A stretch of 64,000 nt of DNA from Nanobdellota archaeon (GTDB taxonomy: Archaea; Nanobdellota; Nanobdellia; Pacearchaeales; GW2011-AR1), in contig JAHIWS010000017.1 of NCBI GenBank assembly GCA_018815925.1, positions 15,285-79,284 on the forward strand, given 5' to 3'. The notes beneath the pieces were generated by a model. It had not been told where the DNA came from and did not search any database. It saw nothing but the letters and a program-made list of their open reading frames with translations. Position 1 is the first letter of the stretch, and each line of letters starts with the position of its first letter. A program made the position numbers and the translations under genes. Below are positions 10,713-51,278 of this stretch, piece by piece.

Positions 10713-11519
10713 ATGAATAAAAAAAAAGAGTTTAACCAAATTTTAAAAAACATAAAAAACATAAAAATTCAAGGAGCAAAAAATATTGCCAAAGCCGCAT
10801 TAAAAGCTTATTTTCTTTTTCCAACAAAATCTTCAAAAAAGAAACTTCTTTATTTAAGACCAACAGAACCTATGCTGGAGCGTGTTTTAAATTTAGCAGA
10901 AAAAAATTCAAAAGAAAAAATATTAGAACATTTTAAAATATCTCAAAATAAAATTAATAACCTCGTATATAAATTAATTAAAAATAAAGATGTAGTTTTT
11001 ACCCACTGCCATTCTACAAATGTTGTTAATGCTTTGGTTTATACAAGAAAAAAAAGAAAAAAGTTTGAAGTTTACAATACAGAGACCCGTCCTTTGTTTC
11101 AAGGAAGAAAAACTGCTAAAGAACTTAAGAAAGAGGGAATCAAAGTTACAATGTTTGTTGATTCTGCTTTAGGAATAGCTCTTTCTAAGGAGCTAGGAAC
11201 AAAAAAAGTTTCTAAAGTTTTTTTAGGTGCAGATGCTCTGACAAAAAAAGGAATAATCAATAAAGTTGGAAGTGAAGTAATAGCAAAAATAGCTAAATCA
11301 GAAAAAATTCCTGTTTTTATTGTAGCTGATTCTTGGAAATTTTCAAGGAAATTTGTTCCTATTGAACAAAGAAAACTAAATGAAGTTTGGGATAAAGCTC
11401 CTAAAAACATTAAAATAAGAAATCCTGCTTTTGAATTTGTAGATAAAAAATATATAACAAAGATAATTACTGAACAAGGCGTACTCAGTTATGAAAAATT
11501 TTGGAGGAAAGTAAAATAA
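10713..11519 (+). CDS. eIF-2B alpha/beta/delta family protein (aIF-2B subunit or ribose-1,5-bisphosphate isomerase-like)
   Basis: GADALTKKGIINKVGSEVIAKIA matches the eIF-2B/MtnA/E2b2 family signature GADxxxxDGxxxNKxGT. Confidence 0.55.
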   Translation: MNKKKEFNQILKNIKNIKIQGAKNIAKAALKAYFLFPTKSSKKKLLYLRPTEPMLERVLNLAEKNSKEKILEHFKISQNKINNLVYKLIKNKDVVFTHCHSTNVVNALVYTRKKRKKFEVYNTETRPLFQGRKTAKELKKEGIKVTMFVDSALGIALSKELGTKKVSKVFLGADALTKKGIINKVGSEVIAKIAKSEKIPVFIVADSWKFSRKFVPIEQRKLNEVWDKAPKNIKIRNPAFEFVDKKYITKIITEQGVLSYEKFWRKVK

Positions 11520-14062: not shown

Positions 14063-14690
14063 TTTTATTCTCTTTTTTTAAACTTAAGATAATTTCGCTA
14101 CCAGCTTTAGTTTGACTTTTAGGAAAACTATTTAGGGAGTGTGATTCACCTCCAGCTTTTTCTACTTTTTTTATTGTTGATTTAGGGGCTTGTTTTGCTT
14201 TTGTTTGGCCATGTTTGGACAAACAAATGAGAATGATTTCTCCACCTTTTGATTTCACTTTCTCTCTTGCAGATTTAGAGGAATCATTTGCTTTTATAAT
14301 TAACTTGTTTTTTACCTCTCCTGTTCCAAGAATTTTATAATCTTTTAAATTAATTTCCCATTTATCACCTATTTTTTTACCATATTTTTCTAAACTAAAT
14401 TCTATTTGTTGAAGATTTATTCTTTTTCTTTTATCTTTTTTTGTTCCTTTACTTGTAATTCCTTGTTTTCCAAAATATTTGTGTCCATAAAGTTTTGTCA
14501 CAAGTGTTTTTTTCTGATCTGCTCTTTTTCCACTACCAGACATTCCTTTTCCTCCCTTATGTCCTGATTTTTTGTGTTTTTTTCTAGCTCCCCATCCATG
14601 ACTCCCCCTATTTCTACCATGCATTCTTGATGATTTTGTACGTTTTGTTAGTTTCATTTTAATTGTATTTTTAACCTTATAATATTCCAC
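14052..14690 (-). CDS. rpl15: 50S ribosomal protein L15 (uL15) with C-terminal extension
   Basis: N-terminus RTKSSRMHGRNRGSHGWGARKKHKKSGHKGGKG is a classic uL15 signature; about 60 extra C-terminal residues. Confidence 0.85.
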   Translation of the reverse strand: MEYYKVKNTIKMKLTKRTKSSRMHGRNRGSHGWGARKKHKKSGHKGGKGMSGSGKRADQKKTLVTKLYGHKYFGKQGITSKGTKKDKRKRINLQQIEFSLEKYGKKIGDKWEINLKDYKILGTGEVKNKLIIKANDSSKSAREKVKSKGGEIILICLSKHGQTKAKQAPKSTIKKVEKAGGESHSLNSFPKSQTKAGSEIILSLKKENKNGS

Positions 14691-14916
14691 CTTCTTTTAA
14701 TTTTTCTGAATAACTATTAAAATTGGGATTATCAGTTTCGATAATCTCTTCACTTAATGGTTTTAATTTTTCACCATCAATTATATATTTTGCTTTTATT
14801 ATTACCCCATTATATCCATCATAATACATAGTATCAAGAGAAACATCTGTTTTTCTAATAATTAATTCATCCCAACCTTTTTTGACTAAAATATTTTTTA
14901 GGTTTTTTGTTTCCAT
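14677..14916 (-). CDS. Hypothetical small protein inserted between L30 and L15
   Basis: 79-aa ORF precisely filling the L30-L15 gap with 1-nt/14-nt overlaps; no recognisable family. Confidence 0.35.
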   Translation of the reverse strand: METKNLKNILVKKGWDELIIRKTDVSLDTMYYDGYNGVIIKAKYIIDGEKLKPLSEEIIETDNPNFNSYSEKLKEGGIL

Positions 14917-20404: not shown

Positions 20405-20806
20405 TTAATATACCATAGAAGCGATTTTAGCAACTTGTGGCCATCGCTCTAAAACCTCCCTTGCAATTGGTCCTTTAATTTGGGTTCCTTTTGGGTTTCC
20501 TTTATCATCTTTTAATATTGCCACAGCATTGTCTTCAAAAGCTATTCTTTCTCCATTTAATCTTCTGTAAGGTTTTTTTTGTCTTATCACAACAGCATCA
20601 AAAACCTTACCTTTCATATCCGGAATTCCTTTTTTAACACTGATTTTTACCCAATCTGCCATTTTTGCTGCGACTTGTTTTCCTTTTTTAGCTTTGCTTT
20701 TTTTCACGGAGACTATTTTTACCATTTTTGCCCCACTATTATCTGCTGAAATCATCCATGATCCTATATTCAATCCTTCTGTTGCTCTAGCTGATATTGC
20801 TTTCAT
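20405..20806 (-). CDS. rpl14: 50S ribosomal protein L14 (uL14)
   Basis: MKAISARATEGLNIGSWMISADNSGAK uL14 signature. Confidence 0.88.
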   Translation of the reverse strand: MKAISARATEGLNIGSWMISADNSGAKMVKIVSVKKSKAKKGKQVAAKMADWVKISVKKGIPDMKGKVFDAVVIRQKKPYRRLNGERIAFEDNAVAILKDDKGNPKGTQIKGPIAREVLERWPQVAKIASMVY

Positions 20807-21153
20807 TATAAATTTACCCCTATTTTATTTAGGATGAATTGAATTATTCCGTTTTTTCGTTCTCTTGATGAATAATTCATGTTTATTCCACTGTGTTCTG
20901 CAGGTAACATAGAAGGGCTGGGAGATCCTATTTTTTTATCCAATTCATTAAGTTTAGTTTCTAATAATTTAATTTCATATTTTTTATTTTTATTTTCAAT
21001 AATTTTTCTTTCTCCTTTTAGTTCTAATAATAAATTGTGTGCATTATCACTAGCTTGTTTAGCAACCATGTAATTTTCCCTAGATAAACATCTTTTAAAT
21101 AAACGTAAACTAGAATTTATTCTATTAACATATTCCATATAATTTTCACTCAT
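20806..21153 (-). CDS. Hypothetical protein inserted between S17 and L14
   Basis: 115-aa ORF translationally coupled on both sides (1-nt overlap with L14, 2-nt gap to S17); no recognisable family. Confidence 0.4.
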   Translation of the reverse strand: MSENYMEYVNRINSSLRLFKRCLSRENYMVAKQASDNAHNLLLELKGERKIIENKNKKYEIKLLETKLNELDKKIGSPSPSMLPAEHSGINMNYSSRERKNGIIQFILNKIGVNL

Positions 21154-21535: not shown

Positions 21536-21835
21536 TTACTCTGAGATGGATTCTTCACTAAATCCGAGTTTGACCATGATTTCTTTTATTTTGTTTCTAT
21601 GGTCTCCTTGAAGTTCTATTATGTTATCTTTGTAAGTCCCACCACAAGCTAGCTCATTTTTCAGAGCTTTTGTGATTTTTTTCACATCGACTTCACTCTC
21701 AAATCCTGTAACAACAGTCACTATTTTCCCGTATCTTTTTTTGTCTGTTGTTATCTTTATCTTTTGTGAACTTTTTACAATCTGTTCACATACACAAGCT
21801 TGCTTAGGCAAGCCACATTTTGGGCATATTTCCAT
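21536..21835 (-). CDS. Translation initiation factor SUI1 (aIF-1)
   Basis: 99 aa with ACGGTYKDNIIELQGDHRNKIKE, the SUI1 hallmark (GG...IQGDHR); canonical position between L29 and S17. Confidence 0.8.
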   Translation of the reverse strand: MEICPKCGLPKQACVCEQIVKSSQKIKITTDKKRYGKIVTVVTGFESEVDVKKITKALKNELACGGTYKDNIIELQGDHRNKIKEIMVKLGFSEESISE

Positions 21836-24449: not shown

Positions 24450-24692
24450 TTACATCAATCCCATCTTAGTAGCTATATCAATAGCAGGAAATTTCTTATT
24501 TAATTTAATATAAACATTTTTTTTATTATCTTGTATTAAAGTTCTAATTTTATTGATTTTTATATCAAACATCTCTTCAATTTCTTTTTTTATCTGTTCT
24601 TTTGTTTTCCTTTTATCTGTTTGAAATGTTAAAATATTCTGCGATTCAATCATCATTATTGCTTTTTCAGTTGTTATTGGTTTAAGATTCAT
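24450..24692 (-). CDS. rpl23: 50S ribosomal protein L23 (uL23)
   Basis: 80-aa; MNLKPITTEKAIMMIESQNILTFQ uL23 pattern. Confidence 0.85.
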   Translation of the reverse strand: MNLKPITTEKAIMMIESQNILTFQTDKRKTKEQIKKEIEEMFDIKINKIRTLIQDNKKNVYIKLNKKFPAIDIATKMGLM

Positions 24693-25318
24693 TTTTTAAG
24701 ATTCTCCGGAATTTTAAATTCATCATATTCTGGAAAAAGATTTTTTCCATAAATTAATCTTGAGAAACACTCAGCTGTTAATTTAGCATCTTCTAGAGCA
24801 TTGTGAGGTTTACCTTCTTTAGTTAATTTTCCTTCTGTAAACTCAACTCTTTCTGGATTTAACCCACAAAAACCTATCACTTCATTTAAATTGAAATTAC
24901 TTTTATTATCTTTAATTGATAAACTATTATTTATTTCAGAAAATTTTGTTTGAACTATAGAATGTGTATCAAAAGCTCTATGGTGGAAAGTTTCTTTTAT
25001 TCCATATTTACTACACTTTACTCTAATAAAGGATACATCAAATTGAGGACATTGACAGATAAAATTTTTTATTTTTCTTTTTTCAACCCATTCCATAAAT
25101 TTTTCTAACATTTCTTTTTGTGTTTTTTTATTTGAATCTCTTAGTTCTTCTTCTGTTTTTCCAGTTACTTTTAATGATTCTTCTGAAACAATTTCTTCAT
25201 CATCTATTTTGCATTCATCAAGATATTCTTCTAAAGTGTCTAGATCTATTGTTCCTATTTGCCAAATTCCATTCTTAATAAAATCTACTCCACTTGTTTC
25301 TATATCTACTACTATCAT
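24689..25318 (-). CDS. DEDDh-family 3'-5' exonuclease (DnaQ/RNase T-like) embedded in the ribosomal protein operon
   Basis: Exo I VVDIETSG, Exo II QFDVSFIRV, Exo III HNALEDAKLTAECF; 209 aa; 4-nt overlaps with both L4 (upstream) and L23 (downstream). Confidence 0.75.
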   Translation of the reverse strand: MIVVDIETSGVDFIKNGIWQIGTIDLDTLEEYLDECKIDDEEIVSEESLKVTGKTEEELRDSNKKTQKEMLEKFMEWVEKRKIKNFICQCPQFDVSFIRVKCSKYGIKETFHHRAFDTHSIVQTKFSEINNSLSIKDNKSNFNLNEVIGFCGLNPERVEFTEGKLTKEGKPHNALEDAKLTAECFSRLIYGKNLFPEYDEFKIPENLKK

Positions 25319-26106
25319 TTGAATTCCTCCAGATCGTTAATTGCTTCTTCAGTATAAATAACAATTCTTCCAAGCCCACCTTTAGCAAGATCATTTATAC
25401 CCATTTTTTTAGCATAAACAATATCAAAAATTTTTGTTTTTAATTTTTCTTTTTTTCCAACCACAATTAGTAAACCCAAATTTTTTTTATATTTTCTTCC
25501 TCTTAATTTTCCTTTTCCTGCCCTAATCTTTTTTTTCTGCAATATAACCTTAAACATTTTTTCTCCTAAAATTTCTTTTAAGGATTTAACTAATTCTTTT
25601 GTTTTTAATGAAATTATTTTAGAATCAACTACAAATGGAACTTCCTTAATATCCTTTTGATCTAGAGTTTTATATTTCTCAACAATAAATTTTTTAGAAG
25701 CTGTTGCACTTAAGGCAGATGCAAAAGCTATTTTTAATTCTTTTTTATTTATTTTTTTTATATAAAAGGAAATTATTTTTGGGGGATGGGTTCTCATACC
25801 TCCTCTTGCCTGTGGAACTTCTGCAGCTTCCCAATTAAATTGAGATCCTTTTCGAGAAAATATTTTTCTTGGGACTCTGGATGCACCTCTTCCATAACCA
25901 CTTCTCCAAACATGCCTCCTATGTACTACTTTTCCTTTTGCAGCATGTTGTTTTCCAGCTACAGGTGAAGGAGAATATGGTTGTTTGTTTTTCTTTATTT
26001 CTAAAATTTTTTGAACAACATCTTTTCTTATTTTAGAAGAAAATATTTTAGGTAAATTTATTTCTTTTATTTTTTTTCCGTTTATGTTTAAAATATTTGA
26101 TTTCAT
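25315..26106 (-). CDS. rpl4: 50S ribosomal protein L4 (uL4)
   Basis: AGKQHAAKGKVVHRRHVWRSGYGRGASRVPRK uL4 core. Confidence 0.88.
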   Translation of the reverse strand: MKSNILNINGKKIKEINLPKIFSSKIRKDVVQKILEIKKNKQPYSPSPVAGKQHAAKGKVVHRRHVWRSGYGRGASRVPRKIFSRKGSQFNWEAAEVPQARGGMRTHPPKIISFYIKKINKKELKIAFASALSATASKKFIVEKYKTLDQKDIKEVPFVVDSKIISLKTKELVKSLKEILGEKMFKVILQKKKIRAGKGKLRGRKYKKNLGLLIVVGKKEKLKTKIFDIVYAKKMGINDLAKGGLGRIVIYTEEAINDLEEFK

Positions 26107-26366
26107 AATCTTACCTCTTCTAGTAATTTATTTCTTTTATTATACTCTTCTCCATCTATAGGGTAAAAATCATATCCTATAAGTGGTTTTAATATAATTC
26201 CTTTTTGTAACCAACCTGTTTTTTCTTTCATATAAGACCATTCTGTTATTTTTCTTGAATCTGTTCTTTTTAAACTTACTAAGGAATTATTATCTTCATA
26301 GATAATTCTTTCCCCTTCCACTACTCTTTTATGTTCAAGTGAATTTGGTATAGTTATATTTATCAT
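26103..26366 (-). CDS. Hypothetical small protein inserted between L3 and L4
   Basis: 87-aa ORF with 4-nt overlaps on both sides (translational coupling); no recognisable family. Confidence 0.4.
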   Translation of the reverse strand: MINITIPNSLEHKRVVEGERIIYEDNNSLVSLKRTDSRKITEWSYMKEKTGWLQKGIILKPLIGYDFYPIDGEEYNKRNKLLEEVRL

Positions 26367-27476: not shown

Positions 27477-27653
27477 ATGCAAACAATAACAAAAGGTGAT
27501 ACAGATGGAGGAAATTATCTAGGTGGCGGATCTGATGGATTACACTTAGGTGGCGGAGATGAAGGTTTACATCTAGGTGGAGGATCTGGCGGACATCACT
27601 TATATGGTGGCGGAGATTCAAATTTCAATGCTGGTAGTGGTGATGGTCCTTAA
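27477..27653 (+). CDS. Small Gly/His-rich repeat peptide (58 aa) encoded by GC-rich tandem repeats
   Basis: ATG...TAA open frame of 59 codons: MQTITKGDTDGGNYLGGGSDGLHLGGGDEGLHLGGGSGGHHLYGGGDSNFNAGSGDGP. About 30-nt tandem repeats (TAGGTGGCGGA...) in an otherwise AT-rich intergenic region; below the ORF-track size cutoff. Confidence 0.35.
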   Translation: MQTITKGDTDGGNYLGGGSDGLHLGGGDEGLHLGGGSGGHHLYGGGDSNFNAGSGDGP

Positions 27654-27717: not shown

Positions 27718-28149
27718 ATGGGAAATAAATCTTTAGATAAAAATTATATTTTAAAGTTAAAGGATCTTTCTGGAGAAAGTGCTAAAATAGCTAGTAATAT
27801 GTATTGCTATGGAAAAAAAGAATATATCACCTCTCAATATATTTCAAAAATATGGAGAGAAGAACTAAAATTAGAAAAACTTCAAGGAGGAAATAGGTCT
27901 TTAACAACTAAACAAGTTTCTGGATTATATAATTTTTGTAAAGGGGACTTTAAATTAATGTTAAAAATTTCAGGAACAGAAAAATCAAGGTTAATTAAAG
28001 CATGCTTAAATAATAATTTAAAACCAAATAATATGCCCATACTTAAATCTAGAAAAAAGAATAACAATAGCAAAGTTGGAAAAATTTATAAAACTAATCC
28101 TTATGGGAGAAAAATTACAGGAAGAAAAGTTTTTGGAGATGACTATTAA
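27718..28149 (+). CDS. Hypothetical protein
   Basis: 143-aa ORF, K/N-rich, no recognisable family. Confidence 0.4.
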   Translation: MGNKSLDKNYILKLKDLSGESAKIASNMYCYGKKEYITSQYISKIWREELKLEKLQGGNRSLTTKQVSGLYNFCKGDFKLMLKISGTEKSRLIKACLNNNLKPNNMPILKSRKKNNNSKVGKIYKTNPYGRKITGRKVFGDDY

Positions 28150-28151
28150 AC

Positions 28152-28850
28152 TCAAGCTTCAAATTCAATTTCCTTAGAAGTCTCTTTATTATCAATCATA
28201 ATTTTTCTTATTATTTTTCCTTTTCTTTTAGCTAATTCTCTGATTTTAGAATAATCTTTTTCACCTTCTGGTATAATTAATTTTTCAACAATTACACTAT
28301 GTTTTATATTGACTTTTTTAGTTTCTGGAATATCCCAAAAAAGATATTGTTTTATTTTTGAATAATATTTTTCATCTGCTTCTAATTGACAAAATTTGTC
28401 ATCTATTTTATCTTCACTCTTACCAGGTTTTGGAAGTTTTTTCTTAATTTTTAATTTAAATCCTTCTCCTTCAATATTTAATAATGTAGCATAAGAGGCT
28501 TTTTCTAATTCTATTAATTGTTCTGGTGTTAATTCTTGATCAGAAATATTATTTTGATAATATAATCCTCCTTTTTTTGTTTCAGAGTTTCCTTTTATAT
28601 TTTTTTCAGATAAAATCTTTGCTATGTTTTCTTTACTTAAAACTATTCCAGAAACTTTGCAGTTTCCAAATTCTGAACATAATAATACCAAGTCATTAAC
28701 AAATTCAAAACTTGTTTTAAGTTTAATTTTTTTTGTTTTCCATAAGGTTAAAAGAAACCTCCCGCCATATTCTCCCTTGCCAAATCTAATAAATTGTTTA
28801 TGAACAGGTTCATCAATTTGCTTCTCAACAATCTTTTTTATAAAATTCAT
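28152..28850 (-). CDS. Hypothetical protein
   Basis: 232-aa ORF, no recognisable family. Confidence 0.4.
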   Translation of the reverse strand: MNFIKKIVEKQIDEPVHKQFIRFGKGEYGGRFLLTLWKTKKIKLKTSFEFVNDLVLLCSEFGNCKVSGIVLSKENIAKILSEKNIKGNSETKKGGLYYQNNISDQELTPEQLIELEKASYATLLNIEGEGFKLKIKKKLPKPGKSEDKIDDKFCQLEADEKYYSKIKQYLFWDIPETKKVNIKHSVIVEKLIIPEGEKDYSKIRELAKRKGKIIRKIMIDNKETSKEIEFEA

Positions 28851-30069: not shown

Positions 30070-31545
30070 ATGAAACTTAAAACAAAATTTTTAAATTGGT
30101 CTGCAGGATTCCCAGTAGTTATGTTAAATGAAAAAACAGCAGGTGAAATGGGGGTGCCGGCCAAAGGAAGAGTTCTTCTTAAAACCATTTCAAAAAAATC
30201 AAAAGAAACAATGGCTATAACAAATCTTGTTAAGAATATTGTTAAAGAAAATGAGGTAGCTGTTTCTTCTGAAATCAAAAAAATACTTTCTGTTAAAAAG
30301 AATCAAAAAATTGAAGTTATTTTAGGCGAAATTCCTAAAAGTATAGAGTTAATAAAAAAGAAATTAGATAATAAACCTCTTTCAGAAAAAGAAATAGATG
30401 AGATAATAATTGATGTAGTTAAGGGAACTTTATCTGATCCAGAAATTGCTCTTTTTGTTTCTGCTCTCTATAAGCAGGGATTGTCAATGAAGGAAACAAT
30501 TTCATTAATAAAAGCTATTTTAAAAACAGGGAACCGTCTTTACTTTAAGAATAAATTAGTTGTAGATAAGCATTCAATAGGGGGAATAGCAGGAAGAACC
30601 ACTCCTATTGTTGTTTCTATTTGTGCAGCTGCAGGACTTATAGTTCCAAAAACCTCTTCTAGAGCTATAACAAGTGCAGCAGGAACAGCAGATATCTTGG
30701 AATCAGTAGCTGATGTTGATTTTCCACTTAAAAAAATAAAAAAAATAATACGAAAAACAAATGCATGTATTGTTTGGGGTGGTTCTTTAGGTTTGGTTCC
30801 AGCAGATTCAAAAATAATCAATGTCGAAAAATTACTTAAAATTGATCCTGAGGCACAACTTCTCTCTTCTATAATTGCAAAAAAACTAGCAGTAGGAAGC
30901 AAATATATTGTTATTGATATTCCCTATGGAAAAACAGCTAAGGTTAACAAAAGTAAAGCGTTAAAGCTAAAAAAGAATTTTGAAAAAATTGCAAGATATT
31001 TTAACAAAAACATAAAATGTCTTTTGGTAGAAAATACAGGCCCATTAGGAAATAGTATTGGTCCTTGTTTAGAATTAATAGATGTTTTAAAAATACTAAG
31101 AAGAGAAAGTCCTTGCCATTTACTAGAAAAAAGATCTTTAGAGCTTTCTGGAGCTCTTTTAGAAATGTCTGGAAAAGCAAAAAAAAATCAGGGCAAGAAA
31201 CTAGCTAAAGAAATTTTAGATTCCGGAAAAGCATTAGACAAATTTAAACAAATAATTAAAGCTCAAAATGGAGATTTGAATAGAATTTATCTTGGAAAAT
31301 TCAAAAAAAATATTTTAGCTTCTAGTTCTGGAAAAATACAAGAGATTGATAATAAAAATATTAATTTGCTTGCAAGAATTACTGGTTCTCCTATTTACAA
31401 GGGTTCTGGAATTTCTTTGCATAAAAATGTTGGGTCTAGGGTTCAAAAAGGACAGTCTCTTTTAACAATTTATTCAGAATCAAAAACAAGATTAAGAAAT
31501 GCTTTGGATTTTTATAAAAAATCTAAACCAGTAAGAATTAATTAA
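30070..31545 (+). CDS. AMP phosphorylase (thymidine phosphorylase family, archaeal long form)
   Basis: DKHSIGGIAGRTTPIVVSICAAAGLIVPKTSSRAITSAAGTADILESV matches the pyrimidine-nucleoside phosphorylase family signature; 491 aa with extra N-terminal domain as in archaeal AMPpase. Confidence 0.6.
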   Translation: MKLKTKFLNWSAGFPVVMLNEKTAGEMGVPAKGRVLLKTISKKSKETMAITNLVKNIVKENEVAVSSEIKKILSVKKNQKIEVILGEIPKSIELIKKKLDNKPLSEKEIDEIIIDVVKGTLSDPEIALFVSALYKQGLSMKETISLIKAILKTGNRLYFKNKLVVDKHSIGGIAGRTTPIVVSICAAAGLIVPKTSSRAITSAAGTADILESVADVDFPLKKIKKIIRKTNACIVWGGSLGLVPADSKIINVEKLLKIDPEAQLLSSIIAKKLAVGSKYIVIDIPYGKTAKVNKSKALKLKKNFEKIARYFNKNIKCLLVENTGPLGNSIGPCLELIDVLKILRRESPCHLLEKRSLELSGALLEMSGKAKKNQGKKLAKEILDSGKALDKFKQIIKAQNGDLNRIYLGKFKKNILASSSGKIQEIDNKNINLLARITGSPIYKGSGISLHKNVGSRVQKGQSLLTIYSESKTRLRNALDFYKKSKPVRIN

Positions 31546-51204: not shown

Positions 51205-51278
51205 TGGGGCTGCCAAGATTTGAACTTGGGTCGCCAGGTCCCAAACCTGGAATACTAACCAGGCTATACTACAGCCCC
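51205..51278 (-). tRNA. tRNA-Pro (anticodon UGG)
   Basis: Hand-folded minus strand: acceptor GGGGCTG/CAGCCCC, D-loop AGCCTGGTTAG, anticodon stem CCAGG/CCTGG with loop UUUGGGA, T-arm CCAAG-TTCAAAT-CTTGG. Confidence 0.75.

Follow-up and report, generated by a model that had tools for sequence, protein, structure and literature searches.

A DEDDh 3'-5' exonuclease gene at the uL4/uL23 junction of a Nanobdellota ribosomal protein operon: a conserved yet polymorphic insertion

Archaeal ribosomal protein operons harbor non-ribosomal passenger genes, among them those for Rpp29 after uL29 and for SecY, Adk, and Cmk after uL15. We analyzed a 64,000-nucleotide (nt) stretch of DNA, referred to as the window, from a Nanobdellota archaeon (GenBank assembly GCA_018815925.1, contig JAHIWS010000017.1, positions 15,285 to 79,284 of the forward strand), in which the gene for a DEDDh 3'-5' exonuclease, designated EXO, lies between the genes for ribosomal proteins uL4 and uL23 (Table 1). 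Like the known passengers, EXO is non-ribosomal, is found on the same strand as its neighbors without any spacer, and sits inside a conserved operon, and it joins that category of genes; unlike them, it occupies the uL4/uL23 junction, encodes a DEDDh exonuclease, and is an insertion that is polymorphic among close relatives. A description of a DEDDh exonuclease at this junction in the ribosomal operons of DPANN archaea was not found in the searchable literature. The chemistry of the protein is ordinary; what is noteworthy is an insertion both conserved and polymorphic at one of the most conserved junctions in biology, in an operon with cassette-like junctions. The identity of the gene, its catalytic residues and fold, its embedding in the operon, and the conservation and lability of its position are established below, and we infer that EXO is co-transcribed, translationally coupled, and enzymatically active.

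EXO belongs to the uL3-uL4-uL23-uL2 (S10-like) operon of the window: it is on the operon strand, has zero spacer, and overlaps both adjacent genes, and uL3 and uL2, identified with Pfam, form the outer flanks of uL4-EXO-uL23. The G+C fraction of EXO (0.24-0.27) is similar to that of the neighboring genes (0.25-0.32). A preliminary description of this DNA, made from the letters alone, had drawn attention to the open reading frame (ORF), its three nuclease motifs, its uL4 and uL23 flanks, and the 4-nt overlaps, and all of these were found to be as it described.

The translated protein of 209 amino acids (aa) contains the motifs MIVVDIETSG (with D5 and E7), CPQFDVSF (D94), and KPHNALEDA (H172 and D177). 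The Pfam RNase_T profile (PF00929) matches with 50.9 bits (cut-off 24; E 3.3e-13), EXO residues 2-185 covering the profile over its whole length of 164 positions. When 30 relatives at 52-70% identity are aligned, the five catalytic residues D5, E7, D94, H172, and D177 and 22 further columns are invariant, giving 27 in all, and the profile of that alignment places ExoI, ExoII, and ExoIII on the solved structures of DnaQ, PolC, and Cas2-DEDDh. An AlphaFold model of EXO (predicted local distance difference test score, pLDDT, 94.9; predicted template modeling score, pTM, 0.90) displays the RNase H-like alpha/beta fold of DnaQ-type exonucleases. With this PF00929 score and the 833 homologs returned by a word-indexed database search, identification as an exonuclease is far above chance. 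EXO is a canonical DEDDh exonuclease with an intact active site, and it is outside all characterized subfamilies; the profile search, the alignment of the catalytic residues with solved enzymes, and the confidently predicted DnaQ-type fold all uphold the assignment first proposed from motifs. As modeled, the structure gives no decision between RNA and DNA as substrate.

None of the curated NCBIfam models reaches its cut-off on EXO. The equivalog model of RNase T (TIGR01298), the DEDDh homodimer encoded by E. coli rnt, scores 13.3 bits against a cut-off of 246.2, and EXO is 17-20% identical to RNase T, from which it differs in its C-terminal tail, in a hairpin preceding ExoIII, and in its distribution, which is archaeal and within the candidate phyla radiation (CPR). 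Models of the DNA polymerase III (Pol III) epsilon subunit are likewise far from their cut-offs (TIGR01406/PRK05711; 34.9 versus 222.7 and 37 versus 196), the match being confined to the N-terminal 135 residues, and EXO is further set apart from epsilon, PolC, and the CRISPR-associated DnaQ (Cas2-DEDDh) by having no polymerase or Cas2 joined to it; neither cas genes nor bacterial Pol III genes were seen in its neighborhood. No NCBIfam oligoribonuclease (Orn) model matches EXO at E values up to 1. The Rv2179c-like profile (PF16473, RNase AS) gives EXO a score of 38.3 bits, and the structural similarity of EXO to Orn/REXO2 and RNase AS is below its similarity to RNase T or epsilon. A role in CRISPR or other defense, considered with Cas2-DEDDh and Cap18 as look-alikes, was rejected on context, there being no cas or CBASS genes beside EXO in the window or in the loci read.

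Named members among the 833 homologs come from metagenome-assembled genomes (MAGs) of Nanoarchaeota, Pacearchaeota, and Woesearchaeota, and a database protein identical to EXO carries the annotation "3'-5' exonuclease [Nanoarchaeota archaeon]". An exhaustive profile search recovered 1227 clusters (50% identity) at E <=1e-3 and 419 at E <=1e-10, nearly all members being full length at approximately 195-215 aa. The named matches among the more distant members belong to Patescibacteria/CPR, namely Saccharimonadales, Parcubacteria, and Paceibacteria. Judged from its named matches, the EXO subfamily appears to be restricted to ultra-small archaea (Nanoarchaeota of the Pacearchaeota and Woesearchaeota type) and CPR/Patescibacteria. 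Members at 30-40% identity retain the C-terminal tail as SRLIxGKNLLxEFxxYxVPExLK. The hairpin before ExoIII is specific to the Pacearchaeota-type archaeal clade and is missing in the distant and CPR members aligned, and the ExoIII aspartate equivalent to D177 is Gly in most of the distant or CPR members aligned, with Asp kept in the clade of the window protein. In two relatives, P0121 and P0143, an active copy is fused in tandem to a catalytically dead one that has lost ExoI residues (D to H together with E to K, or E to K); by analogy with RNase T, Orn, and TREX, such fusions hint at a homodimer, and the duplications suggest that the family may form dimers in which one of the two active sites is dispensable. 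Other fusions point in opposite directions: rare relatives are joined to a MazF/PemK RNA-endonuclease-type domain, suggestive of RNA, and two relatives carry a Top1-type zinc ribbon, below the Pfam cut-off, suggestive of DNA.

To describe the contexts in which EXO occurs, we used 80 EXO loci obtained by a scan, one genome per GTDB species, a sample conditioned on similarity to the EXO of the window; the ORFs of each locus were labeled by BLAST against a small reference set consisting of the window proteins and a complete Pacearchaeota genome, and the NCBI organism names of the MAGs are coarse. The order uL3-uL4-EXO-uL23-uL2 is present in 48 of the 80 species-level Nanoarchaeota (Pacearchaeota- and Woesearchaeota-type) genomes, so that the insertion noticed in the window recurs in relatives, and EXO was never found at any other junction of the uL3-uL4-uL23-uL2 operon among the 80 loci. 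The 4-nt uL4/EXO overlap is retained in 38/48 of these loci and the EXO/uL23 overlap in 33/47. One of GGAG, GAGG, or GGAGG is found at positions -16 to -4 of EXO in 36 of the 48 ribosomal-context loci, which fits translational coupling, and the frequency of such Shine-Dalgarno-like motifs at EXO is, jointly with uL23, the highest in the operon. Since the overlaps and Shine-Dalgarno-like motifs are conserved in the ribosomal context, EXO is a long-standing, expressed-looking member of the operon in many lineages.

The remaining loci place EXO elsewhere. It is followed by Gins51 (Gins51_C, PF22090) in 17/80 loci, and in 13 of these the EXO stop overlaps the start of Gins51; apgM is directly upstream of EXO in eight of the Gins51 loci and two genes upstream in four more, and two loci in which Gins51 was not detected likewise have apgM directly upstream, giving totals of 10 direct and four two-genes-upstream occurrences. 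A third arrangement, uS15-GAN-eS27-EXO-eIF2alpha-aS21-EF1beta, is present in 3/80 loci, including the complete genome CP061211.1. The other 12 loci comprise four (L028, L033, L044, and L060) that share parts of a neighborhood with TrmB, helix-turn-helix, cytidylyltransferase, and cysteine-desulfurase genes, the two with apgM directly upstream, and six without a recurring neighbor. For the ancestral context we constructed a tree of EXO, which, as with all trees here, was built by neighbor-joining on short proteins; it is poorly resolved, and the ribosomal-operon and Gins51 contexts interleave.

Sampling by uL4 gives a different view of the junction. Metagenome contigs were scanned with the uL4 of the window, yielding an 80-contig sample conditioned on uL4 similarity (57-72% identity), of which 73 contigs were informative. 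EXO lies between uL4 and uL23 in only 9/73 of these relatives, compared with 48/80 of the EXO-bearing genomes; uL23 follows uL4 immediately in 56/73, and a different small ORF separates them in 8/73. In nine of the 56, all from one clade of relatives (L104, L107, L127, L135, L136, L139, L143, L145, and L166), uL23 has a Lys/Glu/Ala-rich N-terminal extension of 60-70 aa that mimics an inserted ORF in coordinate scans. The possibility that apparent uL4-uL23 gaps represent decayed EXO was rejected, since the Lys-rich uL23 extensions account for nine of them and unrelated ORFs for eight; no frameshifted or truncated EXO remnants were found at the empty sites of the uL4-sampled loci. In the uL4 tree, EXO-present and EXO-absent states interleave near the window, and the closest uL4 relative of the window, L090, has neither EXO nor the small orf87 that precedes uL4 in the window.

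A recent change is apparent in the pair L026 and L109, which are approximately 90% identical at the DNA level on both sides of the junction and differ by a 777-nt block containing EXO and a 58-aa ORF, orf58 (L026:5857-6634 versus L109:1032-1063). The block occupies precisely the interval from the uL4 stop to the uL23 start, and all junctions are ATGA overlaps. The same two contigs also differ by a 265-nt block, containing an 87-aa ORF, between uL3 and uL4, and the boundaries of the blocks are all at AAAATGAA-type stop/start overlaps. In the uL4 tree L109 falls within a group of EXO-bearing operons, so that EXO seems to have been lost or relocated there cleanly and recently. The insertion at uL4/uL23 is probably old and inherited, and EXO appears to have been lost or moved repeatedly, the recurring sites being mostly in other tightly packed housekeeping operons (eS27/eIF2alpha and apgM/Gins51).

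EXO is not alone in entering these operons. In the 48 loci, adjacent ribosomal genes are often more than 100 nt apart, as at uL3/uL4 in 18/46 and at uL23/uL2 in 21/45, and these gaps yielded 81 candidate ORFs of 35 aa or longer on the strand of the operon; many measure 60-180 aa, and nearly all are singletons or members of tiny families. Identifiable inserts include a NUDIX hydrolase gene between uL4 and EXO (L048:5618-6004) and an HD phosphohydrolase gene between uS3 and uL29 (L026:9183-9731); a 501-aa ORF is found between EXO and uL23 (L041:4205-5710). At the junctions examined, namely those of L026 and of orf87 in the window, the inserts keep the ATGA overlaps. The junctions act like slots open to cassettes of promoterless genes, of which EXO, the NUDIX and HD genes, and many ORFans are examples. 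Because they accept many unrelated ORFs, position in the operon is no proof of ribosomal function: it signals co-expression with the translation apparatus, not action on the ribosome. In this lineage, even the most conserved operon position is weak evidence of function, which calls for caution in guilt-by-association annotation, and the coming and going of promoterless genes with their ATGA and Shine-Dalgarno coupling kept is maybe an interesting mode of gene-expression capture.

The distant homologs offer a further set of contexts, of which seven loci were read: two from named CPR proteins, one (L086) that is probably archaeal because its contig also encodes an XPG/FEN1-type nuclease, and four (L087, L168, L169, and L170) that are probably from CPR bacteria because their neighbors look bacterial or CPR. 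Insertion of the EXO homolog into a ribosomal operon was observed in none of the seven. The Saccharimonadales (L084) and Parcubacteria (L085) homologs have unremarkable neighbors, and that of L086 is 3' of a class II aminoacyl-tRNA synthetase gene. The last four loci have one shared synteny (L9-PPIase-L27...EXO-LOG) in which a LOG-family gene (PF03641/PF18306) directly follows EXO, overlapping it by 7 nt in L170, and ROK comes next, PGI intervening between LOG and ROK in L087 and L169. The L27 and L9 genes are 0.4-2 kb upstream of EXO in three of the four, with other genes intervening, and a divergent UDG gene is upstream of EXO in two. The exonucleases of these loci have Gly in place of the ExoIII Asp (PHNALTGA). 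LOG-family enzymes include nucleotide 5'-monophosphate nucleosidases, and an exonuclease releasing nucleoside monophosphates (NMPs) beside LOG and sugar-phosphate enzymes suggests nucleotide catabolism.

The reading that we favor, and to which we would give an even chance, is that EXO is a growth-coupled housekeeping 3'-5' exonuclease acting on RNA 3' ends or oligoribonucleotides, carried as a translationally coupled passenger of the operon; RNA or oligonucleotides are our guess at its substrate. In such a scheme, the polycistronic ribosomal protein mRNA would carry EXO, and a ribosome terminating at the uL4 UGA would re-initiate on the overlapping EXO AUG with the assistance of the GGAGG 8 nt upstream, and would hand translation on from EXO to uL23 through the same kind of coupling. 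The enzyme would use two-metal-ion hydrolysis to strip 3'-terminal nucleotides from single-stranded ends, and the resulting 5'-NMPs could feed maturation or turnover and nucleotide salvage; trimming of stable RNA would also be possible. A role of this kind is favored because the sole constant of placement is insertion into constitutive, tightly packed, and varied operons, and because the family, in its named matches, is common to CPR and DPANN, which live on salvaged nucleotides. It is favored also because neighbors such as LOG, apgM, and NUDIX encode nucleotide or central-carbon enzymes, and because the window contains AMP-phosphorylase-like and ribose-1,5-bisphosphate isomerase-like (IF-2B-family) genes, both belonging to the pentose bisphosphate/RuBisCO route of nucleotide salvage in archaea and CPR. 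Salvage through AMP and RuBisCO typifies CPR and DPANN (PMC6389311, PMC5113843). The homodimer hinted at by the two tandem fusions leans toward the same reading. Should EXO indeed act on RNA 3' ends, it would supply a missing piece of archaeal RNA processing and define a CPR/DPANN-specific housekeeping nuclease, a further family common to both groups of ultra-small symbionts.

Several observations weigh against this reading. The closest sequence matches with solved structures are DNA exonucleases (CRISPR DnaQ 8h18, E 3e-10; the PolC exonuclease, 2e-9; and Cas2-DEDDh), and the best partial NCBIfam matches are Pol III epsilon models; overlap of the EXO stop with the Gins51 start, in 13 of 17 loci, likewise points toward DNA. 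Translation-related operons, on the other hand, account for 51/80 EXO contexts, which could mean that EXO is genuinely tied to the ribosome. The connections to salvage are weak: the four LOG loci amount to approximately one observation because their synteny is shared, and the AMP phosphorylase gene of the window is on the opposite strand, approximately 5 kb from EXO. Nor is 3'-5' RNA decay obviously missing from these organisms, since Cluster-2 DPANN archaea retain the Rrp4/41/42 exosome (PMC7414124), and the idea of EXO as a replacement for a missing exosome is unsupported for the same reason.

The preliminary description had taken the operon position, with EXO expressed stoichiometrically with ribosomal proteins, to suggest a dedicated role in rRNA or tRNA 3'-end trimming, ribosome-associated RNA quality control, or a moonlighting proofreader in a reduced genome. 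As a general proposition, a ribosome-linked factor that trims 23S/5S rRNA or tRNA 3' ends or polices ribosome-bound RNA, comparable to RNase T in E. coli and ERI1/Rex1 in eukaryotes, would explain the operon seat through a need for joint synthesis with ribosomal proteins, and it is consistent with the 48 uL4-EXO-uL23 genomes, the three eS27-EXO-eIF2alpha loci, and the conserved start/stop overlaps and Shine-Dalgarno-like motifs. It is also in its favor that no enzyme is known to complete the 3' ends of 23S and 5S rRNA in archaea. We nevertheless consider it unlikely, its case being weakened by the lability of the position: EXO is at uL4/uL23 in only nine of the 73 uL4-sampled relatives, its clean presence in L026 and absence from L109 is a recent polymorphism, EXO is coupled just as tightly to Gins51, the seven distant loci are devoid of ribosomal-operon insertions, and the same junctions take unrelated ORFs and NUDIX and HD genes. 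The low score of the RNase T equivalog model (13 bits against 246) also argues against it. A dedicated ribosomal role therefore does not follow from operon position, given these counts together with the 17/80 Gins51 loci and the permissive junctions. The more specific proposal that EXO is a ribosome-biogenesis or RNA quality-control factor, the enzyme finishing archaeal 23S/5S rRNA (or tRNA) 3' ends and made in step with ribosomal proteins, seems to us quite unlikely; were it true, the repeated re-insertion of EXO into translation and replication operons would reflect selection for growth-rate-coupled dosage. Stoichiometric expression was an unwarranted assumption, since coupling leaves ratios unfixed and internal termination is documented for archaeal ribosomal operons (PMC10450193), and EXO is probably not a stoichiometric, ribosome-bound factor.

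A DNA-directed enzyme, that is, a stand-alone DnaQ-like proofreading or end-trimming exonuclease associated with the replisome (CMG/GINS, primase, PolB) or with repair, stays in contention through its coupling to Gins51 and its sequence matches of DnaQ and PolC type. EXO is immediately 5' of Gins51 in 17 of the 80 loci, 13 of them with overlap, the Cdc45/RecJ homolog GAN is two genes upstream in the eS27 context, UDG is divergently upstream in two LOG-context loci, and two relatives bear the sub-threshold Top1-type zinc ribbon; the DnaQ, PolC, and Cas2-DEDDh structures and the epsilon models are the best matches in their respective searches. Yet all epsilon and PolC models fall far below their cut-offs (37 versus 196, for example), translation operons form the majority of contexts, the apgM-EXO-Gins51 triad includes no further replication gene, and the MazF/PemK-type fusions of other relatives point toward RNA. 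Archaeal PolB and PolD, moreover, carry their own proofreading nucleases, and we regard a DNA-directed role as improbable. It is highly improbable that EXO is a neutral or selfish hitch-hiker, a promoterless cassette in a permissive junction that has no important function or is decaying. The many singleton ORFs at the operon junctions of this clade and the gain or loss of EXO between near-identical strains would fit such a passenger, but 27 invariant columns, including all five catalytic residues, among 30 sequences at 52-70% identity, a family of 419 clusters (50% identity) at E <1e-10, a position conserved in 48 species-level genomes, and the lack of frameshifted or truncated remnants at empty sites argue against it. 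The housekeeping exonuclease acting on RNA remains the reading that we prefer.

Table 1. Positions of EXO, its motifs and junctions, and other features of the window
Feature	Coordinates	Strand	Basis or remark
EXO gene (DEDDh 3'-5' exonuclease, 209 aa, ATG start)	24689..25318	-	ORF list
uL4 gene, upstream neighbor of EXO	25315..26106	-	PF00573, 75.9 bits
uL23 gene, downstream neighbor of EXO	24450..24692	-	PF00276, 49.7 bits
ATGA overlap, uL4 stop TGA / EXO start ATG	25315..25318	-	DNA read directly
ATGA overlap, EXO stop TGA / uL23 start ATG	24689..24692	-	DNA read directly
GGAGG Shine-Dalgarno-like motif within uL4 3' end (last codons), 8 nt 5' of EXO ATG	25326..25330	-	
ExoI motif D5-I-E7, metal ligands	25298..25306	-	Aligned to ExoI of DnaQ, PolC, Cas2-DEDDh
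ExoII aspartate D94	25037..25039	-	Invariant; aligned to ExoII of PDB DEDDh chains
ExoIII motif H172-N-A-L-E-D177 (general base His and fourth acidic residue)	24788..24805	-	Aligned to pHRALdDA of PolC, DnaQ
Beta-hairpin insertion, residues 157-170, RVEFTEGKLTKEGK, directly before ExoIII	24809..24850	-	Model strands 159-161, 164-167
Family-specific C-terminal tail E183..GKNLFPEY..IPENLKK	24692..24772	-	Conserved from archaeal to CPR members; predicted ordered, pLDDT ~93-95
orf87, between uL3 and uL4	26103..26366	-	87 aa; ATGA overlap at each end
orf115, between uS17 and uL14	20806..21153	-	
orf79, between uL30 and uL15	14677..14916	-	
SUI1/eIF1 gene, between uL29 and uS17	21536..21835	-	
orf232, 5' of uL3	28152..28850	-	232 aa
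143-aa ORF, between orf232 and uL3	27718..28149		Strand opposite to orf232
Gly-rich 58-aa ORF, between orf232 and uL3	27477..27653		
AMP/pyrimidine-nucleoside-phosphorylase-like gene	30070..31545	+	
IF-2B-family (ribose-1,5-bisphosphate isomerase-like) gene	10713..11519	+	
tRNA-Pro	51205..51278		tRNA and Rfam scans

The ribosomal gene string of the window runs uL3, orf87, uL4, EXO, uL23, uL2, uS19, uL22, uS3, uL29, SUI1, uS17, orf115, uL14, uL24, eS4, uL5, uS14, uS8, uL6, eL32, eL19, uL18, uS5, uL30, orf79, uL15, SecY, and an EMC3-like gene, so that the non-ribosomal company of EXO in the same string includes SUI1, SecY, and the EMC3/YidC-like gene. The genes of the alternative contexts, among them Gins51, apgM, eS27, eIF2alpha, and GAN, were looked for in the window and none is present. 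To see whether a stable RNA that might serve as substrate lies close to EXO, the window was scanned for tRNAs and Rfam families; the sole match was tRNA-Pro, 26 kb away.

The small orf87 has no Pfam or NCBIfam match and no homolog in the 80 related loci, and the uL3/uL4 junction that it occupies holds other unrelated small ORFs in 18/46 related operons. No credible Pfam match was obtained for orf87, orf115, or orf79. The slot between uL29 and uS17 is that of the RNase P protein Rpp29 in most archaea; in the window it contains the SUI1/eIF1 gene, which is kept there in approximately 40 related loci.

Upstream of the operon, orf232 encodes a conserved protein without a Pfam match, with invariant residues that include H17, G26, K134, K136, P140, F153, C154, and R204, and it is found on the same strand 5' of uL3 in approximately 30 related loci. 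In the window, an 850-nt stretch holding the opposite-strand 143-aa ORF and the Gly-rich 58-aa ORF parts it from uL3. The synteny phosphorylase-AI-2E-orf232-uL3, which includes the AMP/pyrimidine-nucleoside-phosphorylase-like gene, is kept in relatives.

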